Shown: positions 24,869 to 26,216 of the stretch, in pieces
Position numbering within the stretch: the stretch's first letter is position 1
Layout: every line of letters begins with the position of its first letter
Source: an uncultured Actinomycetota bacterium
Lineage (GTDB): Bacteria > Actinomycetota > Geothermincolia > Geothermincolales > RBG-13-55-18
Direction of reading: 5' to 3'
DNA length: 64,000 nt
Assembly: GCA_964510515.1 (NCBI GenBank)
Contig: CAZEAU010000008.1
Coordinates: 5,379-69,378 of the forward strand
Made by a program: the position numbers and the translations under genes
The notes under the pieces: generated by a model
The model's input: the letters and a program-made list of their open reading frames with translations, nothing else
The model's database searches: none
What the model was told of the DNA's origin: nothing

Positions 24869-25145
24869 TATCTGTTTATTTCTGCGCCGGGCCGTCATCA
24901 CCTGGCATGACTTGCGCTCCGGCGGCAAGTTGGACATCTACACCCAGCGGGTGAACGCAGGCACCTCGCCCCCGGCCGCCTGGTACCTGGCCGAGTGGCA
25001 CGACTGGGGTCAACCCTCCCAAGTGCCATACGTGCGGAGCCGGGCGGGCACAGGGGGCCAATCAGCCATCGCCTCGTGCCTCAATATCAGGCCACCAATG
25101 GGAAATCAGGATATCTATTTCCCTGACCCCAGCTCAAACATAGTC

Positions 25146-25202
25146 TGGCGGAGAGGGTGGGATTCGAACCCACGAGACCCCTCGCGGAGCCCAACGGTTT
25201 TC
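25146..25202 (-). pseudogene. Partial tRNA-Ser(CGA) copy (3' half only)
   Basis: Identical to the anticodon-stem-3' through acceptor/CCA region of the tRNA at 26125-26216. The upstream half is absent. Confidence 0.7.
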
Positions 25203-25309
25203 TAGCCTGATGTACTCTCGAATGGCGTTATAAGCCGGCCCCATGACAGTTACTGCTGAATCCGTTGGTGATTCTTCTCAGGCGACTTCGGATCTCTTCG
25301 GTAACGAAG

Positions 25310-25546
25310 CTACCTCAGCTTCTTCAATTGTACCTTCAAGCCTTTGATGTCCTTGCCGGCAACCCTCCAAGTAAGCTTGAGATCCAGGCCAAAGTATTCG
25401 TGGACGATTATGTCCCGCATCCCTGCCATCTCTTTCCAGGGTATGTCGGGATTCAGCTCCTTGTAGTCCTGCGGGAGGTTCTTCGTGGCTTCGCCGATTA
25501 TCTCGAGCCTTCGCATAACCGCGTCCTGAAGTTGAGTTGAGGCCAT
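25310..25546 (-). CDS. hepT: HepT-family (DUF86) toxin, annotated start probably too short
   Basis: Rx4HxY motif RDIIVHEY. The conserved N-terminal helix (YLFIEHILECIELIEGYLHGKTVDDF) continues upstream of the ATG, in frame, up to a TGA. Confidence 0.7.
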   Translation of the reverse strand: MASTQLQDAVMRRLEIIGEATKNLPQDYKELNPDIPWKEMAGMRDIIVHEYFGLDLKLTWRVAGKDIKGLKVQLKKLR

Positions 25547-25639
25547 GAAATCATCAACCGTCTTGCCGTGAAGGTAACCCTCGATGAGCTCGATGCATTC
25601 CAGAATATGCTCTATGAATAAATACCTGTGGTTCCTTTT

Positions 25640-25933
25640 TCACAGAATGACCTTCTGCTCGCCCAATATCCTGTCCTTGAGAAGTGGATGCAGGGATTCA
25701 TAGGTGAGCACATCCACGCCCCTACCCAGGATCTCCTCCAGCTCTATCTTCAGACCGGCCAGATCCAGCAGGCTCTTTTCCCCGCCCAGCTCGACGAGGA
25801 TGTCCACGTCGCTCTGCTCATCGCTTTCCTCTCTCGCGATGGAGCCGAAAAGCGAAGCCTTGATAACATCATGCCTATCGAGCACGGGTAAAATCTTCGT
25901 CTTTACCTCTTCCAAGGTCATCCTTTTGCCCAT
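25640..25933 (-). CDS. mntA: MntA-type nucleotidyltransferase antitoxin
   Basis: GSIAREESDEQSDVDILV minimal NTase motif (GS..D.D). Confidence 0.8.
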   Translation of the reverse strand: MGKRMTLEEVKTKILPVLDRHDVIKASLFGSIAREESDEQSDVDILVELGGEKSLLDLAGLKIELEEILGRGVDVLTYESLHPLLKDRILGEQKVIL

Positions 25934-26124
25934 CTGTGCCTTCCCAAACGTGACTTGTGTTTTCCCTGATCATTATAACAATCAGAGGCTGCAACCAGCA
26001 TTTATTTCTGCACGGCCCATATATTTTGTCGAGTCACAAAATATGTCACAGTCCGATTTCAGCCAGTTTCTGCGGATTTCTGATGCGGGAGACGTTTATA
26101 TAAAACCCCAGCTCTAACATAGTC

Positions 26125-26216
26125 TGGCGGAGAGGGTGGGATTCGAACCCACGAGACCCCTCGCGGAGCCCAACGGTTTTCGAGACCGCCGCATTCGTCC
26201 ACTCTGCCACCTCTCC
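26125..26216 (-). tRNA. tRNA-Ser (anticodon CGA)
   Basis: Acceptor GGAGAGG/CCTCTCC, anticodon loop CTCGAAA, long variable arm, T-loop GGTTCGAATCC, CCA encoded. Confidence 0.8.

Follow-up and report, generated by a model that had tools for sequence, protein, structure and literature searches.

The 64,000-nucleotide stretch of uncultured Actinomycetota DNA analyzed here (contig CAZEAU010000008.1; hereafter, the window) carries, next to a tRNA-Ser(CGA) gene, a toxin-antitoxin (TA) islet of the mntA-hepT type which is bracketed by two copies of the 3' part of that tRNA gene. We consider it rather likely that the segment from approximately 25203 to 26181 represents a miniature integrative cassette that lacks an integrase, is comparable to a cis-mobilizable element (CIME), and was inserted into tRNA-Ser(CGA) through site-specific recombination by a recombinase acting in trans. 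A CIME- or cassette-like description was chosen because the conserved ends enclose different cargo from one genome to another; the window copy itself is decaying, its hepT gene being frameshifted and the inverted repeat of its right arm degenerate. All coordinates refer to the window, in which the tRNA, repeats, arms, mntA, and hepT lie on the minus strand, and L-numbers (L001, L082, etc.) denote loci or contigs retrieved for comparison.

The duplicated tRNA-Ser(CGA) 3' part and the insert

A repeat search identified one two-copy direct repeat family at this site (Table 1), whose 80-nt copies are 98% identical, with 2 mismatches (25136/26115 and 25203/26182) and a longest exact run of 66 nt (25137-25202), a match which is far above chance level within 64 kb. 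Read in the tRNA sense, the repeat covers tRNA positions 33 to 92 (anticodon loop to CCA) and 20 nt of 3' flank: it sets in 2 bases before the anticodon and proceeds through the 3' strand of the anticodon stem, the variable arm, the T arm, the 3' strand of the acceptor stem, and the CCA into the 20-nt trailer. The inner mismatch coincides with the first anticodon base, being C in the gene and A in the distal copy. The intact gene is preceded by a promoter-like TTTACC-16-TATAAT (26252-26225), and the distal copy, which is not called as a tRNA by ARAGORN, is followed by host-like GC-rich DNA and then by tauE. Such a combination of a complete and a partial tRNA copy is the usual product of integration (PMC9897764). 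The sole other partial match to the repeat within the window is the T-arm of tRNA-Ser(GCT), and the window repeat check found no duplicated part of the three further same-strand tRNA genes located within 9 kb, at 21915-22005 and 30491-30703, which specify Ser(GCT), Arg(ACG), and Ser(GGA).

The interior of the islet (25206-26104) comprises 899 bp with a GC content of 49.8%, compared to 67.0% for the rest of the window (z = -5.3 against 899-nt windows; whole-window GC, 66.8%), and is the only strongly low-GC kilobase within the window. Its gene content consists of mntA and hepT alone, for which the GC contents at third codon positions (GC3) are 0.71 and 0.70, respectively, relative to a host mean of 0.889 (standard deviation, 0.031; z = -5.7 and -6.3). 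In minus-strand terms, the gene order comprises cysK (22545-23471), tauE (24092-24937), the islet, tRNA-Ser(CGA) (26125-26216), and tadA (about 26332-26781).

These data largely uphold a preliminary description of this DNA, in which a 76-bp repeat with 19 nt of flank (correct to within 1 to 4 nt), corresponding to the 3' half of tRNA-Ser(CGA), was reported to enclose a low-GC segment of approximately 0.9 kb with only an mntA-hepT pair. The intact tRNA at one end and the displaced 3' part at the other, the 899-bp interior with two Pfam-matched genes, and the foreign composition evident from both GC content and GC3 all agree with that account, and its central claim, a classic footprint of site-specific integration into a tRNA gene, stands on the identity starting from the anticodon loop, the foreign composition, the lack of an integrase inside the islet, and the intact and displaced tRNA parts.

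An assembly duplication had been named as one way in which this footprint could prove spurious. The region from 26145 to 25147 was recovered identically as an independently assembled Logan contig (L001, run SRR17676810), while the junction between the distal copy and the host flank is present in Logan contig L229 (run SRR17676820). Because independent contigs thus hold both the cassette and the distal junction, a simple assembly duplication is unlikely. Exact look-ups of MntA, the 68-aa HepT, and TauE retrieved only Logan contigs which break inside the repeat, and an exact-protein look-up of CysK found no strain variants on record. The end of L001 at 25147 does not fall at a k-mer boundary, and nothing regarding a circular form was read into it.

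Conserved ends of the cassette family

Alignment of twelve left ends revealed a left module of ~95 nt after the CCA, which reads NNCTATGTTTGARCNGGKGTTTTA, a variable stretch, and then ..TCCG.CATC..GAAATCCGCAGAAAC.GG.C.AAAACGGACTGTGACA.ATTTTGTGACA. This module is present at the proximal copy of the window, as well as in L082 (both units), L084, L095, L100/L104, and L103 (both copies). Within it lies TGTGAC-N6-TGTGAC (26033-26050), a direct repeat which occurs once in the window (0.14 expected) and which, among 228 fetched loci, was encountered only in left modules of the family and, reversed, in the attachment (att) region of one provirus (L105). On the opposite side, the block TTCGAGAGTACATCAGG recurs, with variations, in L082 (both units, and thus both cargo types), L084, L088, L095, and L225/L226. 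In the relatives, this right-arm block pairs with the anticodon region as a 13-bp inverted repeat, which forms a strong hairpin in L082 (z = -4.5); the window version of it is degenerate (z = +0.5). By analogy, a direct-repeat arm on one side, combined with a core over the anticodon loop, would have the appearance of a tyrosine-integrase attP/attL/attR set.

The possibility that the ~115 nt following the tRNA represent its native trailer was rejected, as only its first 20 nt are present at the distal copy of the window and none of it is present at the terminal right copies of other loci. Similarly, a GTTGGGC in the variable arm was considered as an attC-like GTTRRRY and dropped as coincidental, the matching R'' being absent. 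A separate observation concerns the above-mentioned, unrelated provirus end (L105, 880-1260; IMG/VR UViG_3300048924_000239), in which the gene for a P4-like integrase is accompanied by a partial 3' part of tRNA-Ser(CGA), a terminator, and GTCACA-N6-GTCACA. Such an arrangement may hint at the type of integrase which recognizes such arms, or it may be a coincidence.

Related cassettes in other genomes

A search with the repaired HepT protein returned about 20 protein clusters at 70 to 83% identity, many of them on ~1-kb contigs, and contigs were retrieved for eight of these HepT clusters, each with up to 10 kb of flank. Besides the window, at least six metagenomic genomes or samples contain cassettes which are about 82% (81 to 84%) identical to the window islet at the DNA level. 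The relatives at this level (L082/L083, L084-L087, L088-L090, L095-L098, and L225-L228) possess tRNA-Ser-like copies which are 90 to 96% identical to those of the window, and ARAGORN found no tRNA-Ser gene in these five groups of loci. A scan of metagenome contigs with the tRNA 3' end and the first trailer bases revealed an intact tRNA-Ser(CGA) with the same trailer in L100/L104, where it lies beside tadA as in the window, and in L103, as well as a further partial copy in L102. The GC content of the cassettes is 47 to 50% across hosts of 56 to 67% GC.

The layout of the family members varies around the conserved ends. L082 harbors two separate units, each with both copies, of which one contains mntA-hepT and the other an NTase (nucleotidyltransferase)/HEPN_SAV_6107 pair; L084-L087 likewise possess both copies, with a second type of mntA-hepT located directly upstream, thus forming an array. 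In contrast to these, L088-L090 and L228 retain only the right copy, L095-L098 carry a left copy and a 20-nt right copy, and a left copy is present in L226 and L227. The arrays observed to date, in L084 and L103, comprise 2 to 3 units. Cargo behind the left module includes, depending on the locus, the window-type mntA-hepT, the NTase/HEPN_SAV_6107 pair, arsC, a 1131-aa SNF2/ResIII helicase with a NOV_C domain accompanied by another NTase/HEPN pair, and FixC/FixX-like oxidoreductase genes accompanied by the second mntA-hepT type. The helicase, there with an NTase/HEPN_SAV_6107 pair, and the FixC/FixX-like genes represent the cargo at L100/L104 and L103, behind the intact tRNA-Ser(CGA).

Comparison of L084 and L088 revealed that both flanks are syntenic and 89 to 95% identical, whereas the cassette that they share is only 84% identical. 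Relative to L088 (9579-9708), L084 (7239-9708) contains an extra 2.5-kb unit composed of a CrtC-like open reading frame (ORF), the type 2 mntA-hepT, and a tRNA-like copy with left module. L103 has this type 2 unit in common with L084, but its sequel differs, and L225 and L226 encode the same HepT protein behind different left flanks. In L088, the sequence of the terminal right copy coincides exactly with the corresponding 3' part of the genuine tRNA-Ser(CGA) gene of a related genome, L002, including a different, compensated variable arm, as would be expected of a displaced host half. Within the window, both copies carry the variable-arm variant CTCCG, where most other family copies have CCTCG, which implies gene conversion or a donor of the same lineage. 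The ~1-kb Logan contigs L001, L083, L087, and L226 begin and end inside the copies, as would be expected of a k=31 assembler at a repeat.

The minimal layout, in which a tRNA-like copy is followed by the ~95-nt arm, the promoter, mntA-hepT, the right arm, and a second tRNA-like copy, recurs at different chromosomal places, and other NTase/HEPN or defence cargo is found between the same ends; the minimal cassette therefore appears to be a persisting and spreading unit. The previous suggestion that an integrase and cargo had since been lost is, as an account of one-off decay, not well supported, given the recurrence of the same minimal layout at 81 to 84% identity elsewhere. With regard to the competing suggestion of a minimal TA cassette moving by another route, the other route is not needed, since the conserved ends point to site-specific recombination, with the recombinase presumably supplied in trans.

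Two further observations were made among these loci. Both left copies of L082 (2279-2401 and 9422-9543) start at tRNA position 27, behind a common 33-nt sequence with TTTACC...TATAAT/C, and the 5'-truncated tRNA is thus situated behind a promoter-like sequence; no claim of a tRNA promoter is made, as the spacer is only 10 nt. Furthermore, a sister group of mntA-hepT loci (HepT about 70% identical) possesses no tRNA-Ser copies and is associated with tRNA-Val(TAC) instead. This group adjoins an intact tRNA-Val(TAC) in L092 (2153-2227) and L093 (1960-2034), and in L091 (8610-10445) three direct copies of a 45- to 67-nt repeat, composed of a hairpin and the tRNA-Val 3' end, surround a unit with a 138-aa ORF and a TA unit.

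Proposed mode of insertion

According to the model that we favor, a donor or circular form would carry an attachment site mimicking the 3' portion of tRNA-Ser(CGA), which begins at the anticodon loop, includes the CCA, and continues for about 20 nt, and a tyrosine-integrase-type enzyme, presumably encoded elsewhere, would recombine this mimic with the chromosomal tRNA gene. The crossover is predicted to occur just 3' of the first anticodon base, such that a 5' part contributed by the host and a 3' part contributed by the cassette would together make up an intact tRNA again, with the CGA anticodon kept and an A at the cassette-side junction. The original 3' part would be pushed to the far side, where it would now constitute the distal repeat; events would presumably have run in this direction. 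The anticodon loop is reportedly a known sublocation for tRNA-targeting integrases, as Williams is said to have described in 2002. With its recombinase presumed to act in trans, the family would behave like very small CIMEs or integron-type cassettes.

The mntA-hepT operon

The antitoxin gene, mntA, is encoded upstream of the toxin gene and specifies a protein with a Pfam match at E = 5e-15 and a GS...DVD motif in GSIAREESDEQSDVDILV, which fits G[GS]-x(9-13)-D-x-[DE]; the exact MntA protein is also encoded on a Logan contig. The native GTG start of hepT overlaps the mntA stop codon (GTGA, 25640-25643). From this GTG, the window hepT reads MKKEPQVFI and then leaves the frame, with translation ending after 29 codons, whereas, in the frame encoding the HepT domain, no start codon follows the mntA stop before Met-33, and public gene calls accordingly give a 68-aa protein (P0037). 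The 20 closest HepT homologues are all 109 to 113 aa in length and start with M/V-KKDP(Q/R)(V/I/L)F(I/V)xHILxCI, the start being MKKDPQVFIDHILEC. DNA alignment attributes the discrepancy to a 4-bp duplication (Table 1), opposite which all five homologous cassettes aligned show a 4-column gap. A slip in the A-run at the hepT start was ruled out as the cause by the same alignment. The duplication is identical in L001 and, because this contig was assembled independently, the frameshift is unlikely to be an assembly slip. From its sequence, hepT is a pseudogene whose toxin is predicted to be dead, with the antitoxin gene and the tRNA still intact; the preliminary description had overlooked this frameshift.

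The likely promoter of the operon (Table 1) was passed over by a consensus promoter scan, since it has no -35 hexamer. A TTGTTATAATGATC block is also found before mntA in L095, L088, and L228.

Table 1. Positions of the cassette-associated features in the window
Feature	Position	Strand	Basis or remarks
Intact tRNA-Ser(CGA)	26125..26216	-	ARAGORN; Rfam RF00005, 57.7 bits; 3' part from anticodon loop is the proximal copy
Proximal repeat copy, attL-type junction	26105..26184	-	tRNA positions 33-92 and 20-nt trailer; repeat search
Left-arm module, putative integrase arm-site region	26020..26104	-	Conserved downstream of tRNA-like copies, unrelated cargo
Extended -10 element (TGTTATAAT), likely TA promoter/operator	25972..25980	-	Read from sequence; partly palindromic stretch upstream of mntA
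mntA, 97-aa minimal nucleotidyltransferase (MNT) antitoxin, intact	25640..25933	-	Pfam PF18765/PF01909 (NTP_transf_2/Polbeta); PADLOC PDC-S09
4-bp tandem duplication, TATT TATT on coding strand	25617..25624	-	After codon 8 of hepT; DNA alignment
hepT pseudogene	25310..25643	-	Pfam HepT-like profile 1-119/120; R-x4-H (RDIIVH) in different frame from GTG start
Right arm	25206..25250	-	Block TTCGAGAGTACATCAGG abuts distal copy; conserved across family
Distal repeat copy, attR-type junction	25126..25205	-	Displaced tRNA 3' part, anticodon first base C->A, and 20-nt trailer

Searches for a recombinase, an empty site, and a parent element

No Phage_integrase domain was detected by Pfam in 36 ORFs of the window, which include all integrase-sized ORFs, and tblastn with the tRNA-Ser-associated integrase of L105 produced no match in the window or the family loci. 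Nor were IntI, attI, or Pc found in the window or related loci. The nearest genome, L002 (TadA 79% identical), possesses a single tRNA-Ser(CGA) with neither a duplicated half nor a low-GC insert. It is the only relative above 64% identity in a TadA search of species-representative genomes and is not syntenic downstream of the tRNA, where the genes differ, so that it constitutes a weak empty-site control. A duplicated 3' half within 10 kb was found at 0 of 44 tadA-linked tRNA-Ser(CGA) loci of other species, indicating that the footprint is not a general property of tRNA-Ser(CGA). A repeat with no insert, which had been named as a possible refutation of the integration footprint, was not seen in L002 or at these 44 loci.

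An empty site would read ...GGTCTCGAAAACC...CCGCCAGACTATGTTTGAGCTGGGGTCAGGG, and a circle or tandem junction ...GAGAGTACATCAGGCTAGAAAACC...GTTAGAGCTGGGGTTTTATATAAAC. In IMG/VR, specific patterns of 33 nt and 28 nt gave 0 matches, while a 25-nt acceptor/T-arm pattern matched more than 120 unrelated tRNA-Ser or att sites, with no similarity to the cassette or its arms. Plasmid and phage collections yielded tRNA-Ser matches only, and no parent element was encountered in these collections or in IMG/VR.

Alternative explanations

Several of the above results weigh against insertion of a trans-mobilized cassette. No cognate integrase turned up in the window or among the annotated genes of the related loci and their flanks of up to 10 kb, and the searches yielded neither an empty site in a close relative, L002 being the nearest genome, nor a circular or excised junction. 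Identity to the nearest sister cassette amounts to only about 83%, so that nothing points to recent movement. The left copy is missing in L088, L225, and L228, merely 20 nt of the right copy are present in L095, and the L082 copies commence at tRNA position 27, behind the common 33 nt; the history of the family must therefore have included deletions and rearrangements which go beyond a simple model. Moreover, a 20-nt trailer confined elsewhere to left copies is present at the distal copy of the window, which requires either an unusually long identity between attB and attP (77 bp) or a lost second unit. The latter option gains some weight from the Clostridia homologues of tauE, and the ostensibly native flank at tauE may itself be acquired DNA.

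A one-off origin would account for part of this pattern. In such a scenario, a larger, integrase-bearing element entered tRNA-Ser(CGA) in an ancestor and was deleted down to a TA pair kept by addiction, and the relatives would be vertical descendants of the old remnant, shuffled by rearrangement, the minimal unit never having moved. The lack of an integrase in the window and the related loci agrees with this, as do the ~83% identity of the nearest cassette, which fits an old divergence, and the apparent relatedness of all carriers, which seem to be uncultured Actinomycetota of similar gene content; decay to CIME-type remnants is, furthermore, a documented fate of integrated elements (PMC5704250). 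However, both arms are conserved around unrelated cargo, L082 carries two units on one contig, and arrays exist. The near-syntenic L084 and L088 differ by presence or absence of a unit while their shared cassette is more diverged than their flanks, and the same HepT protein is found with two left flanks (L225 and L226). A cassette GC content of 47 to 50% in hosts of 56 to 67% GC is also contrary to long vertical residence. We therefore regard decay of a single island as unlikely, and less likely than a recurrent minimal cassette.

Homologous recombination could have introduced a cassette already flanked by two tRNA-like copies via 57- to 77-bp homologies, and the CTCCG variant and 20-nt trailer common to both copies are what might be expected after exchange or gene conversion. 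Since this leaves unexplained the arms with their direct repeats, the boundary of identity at the anticodon loop, and the origin of the flanked unit, we deem it quite improbable. A role at the RNA level, in which MNT-HEPN operons are transcribed together with the tRNA-Ser 3' mimic behind them and the mimic, having spread through this function, serves a HEPN RNase/nucleotidyltransferase pair acting on tRNA 3' ends as a decoy, regulator, or 3'-end stabilizer, appears more improbable still. A tRNA-like copy lies 7 to 110 nt downstream of, and in the same orientation as, three different MNT-HEPN subfamilies, namely, the window type, that of L084/L103, and the NTase/HEPN_SAV_6107 pair in unit A of L082; some HEPN-MNT toxins reportedly trim tRNA 3' ends, a finding said to come from Songailiene et al. 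in 2020, and MenT nucleotidyltransferase toxins favor tRNA-Ser. Nevertheless, the same copies and arms flank non-TA cargo (arsC, fixCX-like genes, and the helicase) in either orientation, the 5'-truncated tRNA is unable to fold as a tRNA and matches no Rfam family beyond tRNA, and the L088 copy is simply a host tRNA half. Because these genomes are very rich in MNT-HEPN genes, the base rate of such an association is also high.

An assembly chimera, in which a cassette from another locus or population genome was threaded into the tRNA-Ser site via the 66-nt exact repeat, would be compatible with the breakage of k=31 Logan contigs inside the repeat at both ends, with a cassette GC content unlike that of the host, and with the occurrence of cassettes at non-tRNA sites in the relatives. 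Yet the copy-specific variants are each linked to unique neighbors in independent Logan contigs, usual reads and the largest k-mers exceed the 80 nt of the repeat, both copies share the window-specific CTCCG, and L100/L104 independently display the tadA-tRNA-left-arm arrangement. We consider a chimera to be the least probable of these explanations and would give it hardly any credence.

In addition to trans-mobilized insertion of the window cassette, which remains our preferred interpretation, a broader proposal may be put forward for the family, namely, that in this clade of uncultured Actinomycetota the tRNA-Ser(CGA) 3'-part mimic and its arms are the sites at which an integron-like system recombines. 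A recombinase acting in trans would capture, stack, and exchange small cassettes with their own promoters, for the most part MNT-HEPN TA or defence genes, with tRNA genes (Ser-CGA and, for the sister group, Val-TAC) representing the primary docking sites. This is conceivable, if doubtful.

Neighboring observations

The tauE stop is closely followed by a tandem duplication of 106 bp (23891-24103; 2.0 copies, 100% identity), at which L229 (SRR17676820) is 106 nt longer, suggesting that the copy number is sample-variable. The best homologues of TauE other than its own entry are ~75% identical and belong to Clostridia (Eubacteriales, Lachnospiraceae, and Eubacterium), not Actinomycetota; tauE has a host-like GC3 of 0.87 and, judging by these homologues, may itself have been acquired. 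Elsewhere in the window, paralogous HEAT/PBS-lyase repeat proteins are encoded at 28532-29518 and 44099-45247, and three ORFs without a Pfam match at 60413-63814 exhibit a lower GC3 (0.64 to 0.70).

Significance and comparison with known mobile systems

Taken alone, the window instance is ordinary and, if only an ordinary reading is true, it adds one more decayed tRNA-site remnant; the novelty lies in the family, as a variant of CIMEs, tRNA-site islands, and cassette arrays. If our reading of the family is correct, TA and defence genes of poorly known, high-GC, and probably thermophilic or subsurface Actinomycetota would travel as recombinase-less kilobase units by means of a tRNA look-alike, and would represent an intermediate form between tRNA-targeted islands, CIMEs, and integron cassettes. 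It would also provide a searchable signature for the missing integrase, in which the tRNA-Ser 3' part leads into CTATGTTTGAGC..GGTGTTTTA and then into TGTGAC-N6-TGTGAC, and which could equally be used to map the flow of defence genes in metagenomes. For annotation, it follows that tRNA fragments far from tRNA genes can mark cassette boundaries and that a seemingly "complete" mntA-hepT pair can hide a dead toxin.

The operon resembles type VII MntA-HepT systems (PMC13000451) in its gene order (mntA, then hepT), GTGA start/stop overlap, NTase motif, R-x4-H, and Pfam matches. It differs in that the hepT frame is broken in the window; AMPylation of the toxin by the antitoxin and RNase activity of the toxin are features of the type.

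CIMEs have been defined among relatives of ICESt1 and ICESt3 in Streptococcus (PMC5704250 and PMC6323972), as elements which arise by deletion from an integrative and conjugative or integrative and mobilizable element and are mobilized in cis when such a conjugative element accretes at the same site. Like these, the window islet retains attL- and attR-type copies, the left arm being well conserved and the right arm partly degenerate, and contains no integration or transfer genes (mntA and hepT only), while the family forms tandem units at one target and would presumably rely on the integrase of a related element. Unlike them, the window element is ~1 kb in length with one TA operon, its minimal form recurs in several genomes with interchangeable cargo, its target is a tRNA gene in uncultured Actinomycetota, and no parent integrative and conjugative or integrative and mobilizable element was found in IMG/VR, phage, or plasmid collections; mobilization is in this case suggested by analogy. 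With tRNA-site islands and prophage remnants (Reiter 1989 and Williams 2002, as cited in PMC9897764), the islet shares complete and partial tRNA direct repeats, a block extending from the anticodon loop to the 3' end, and a foreign composition. It departs from them in that neither att site is adjoined by an integrase, the insert is far below the usual 9 to 120 kb, the identity runs 20 nt past the tRNA, and partial copies also occur where there is no intact tRNA.

Integron cassettes, including the TA cassettes of chromosomal integrons, are single-operon units of ~1 kb which form arrays with a conserved recombination site, are served by a recombinase encoded outside, and, in the case of TA cassettes, carry their own promoter. 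The window family fits these features, being composed of ~1-kb units with arrays, a conserved site, no recombinase, and a promoter-bearing TA operon, but its site is a tRNA 3'-part mimic with arms rather than an attC hairpin, and the hallmark IntI, attI, and Pc are missing from the loci searched. When checked for an attC-type palindrome, the 13-bp junction-spanning inverted repeat was found to fold in L082 (z = -4.5), not in the window, and the order R''/L''/L'/R' was not demonstrated. The pdif modules of Acinetobacter plasmids are small units, often TA, which are bounded by 28-bp XerC/D sites in inverted pairs and whose recombinases are encoded elsewhere. The family described here likewise consists of small modules, often TA, with recombination-site bounds and a presumed outside recombinase, whereas its sites are ~60- to 80-bp direct repeats which are derived from a tRNA gene and located on chromosomes.

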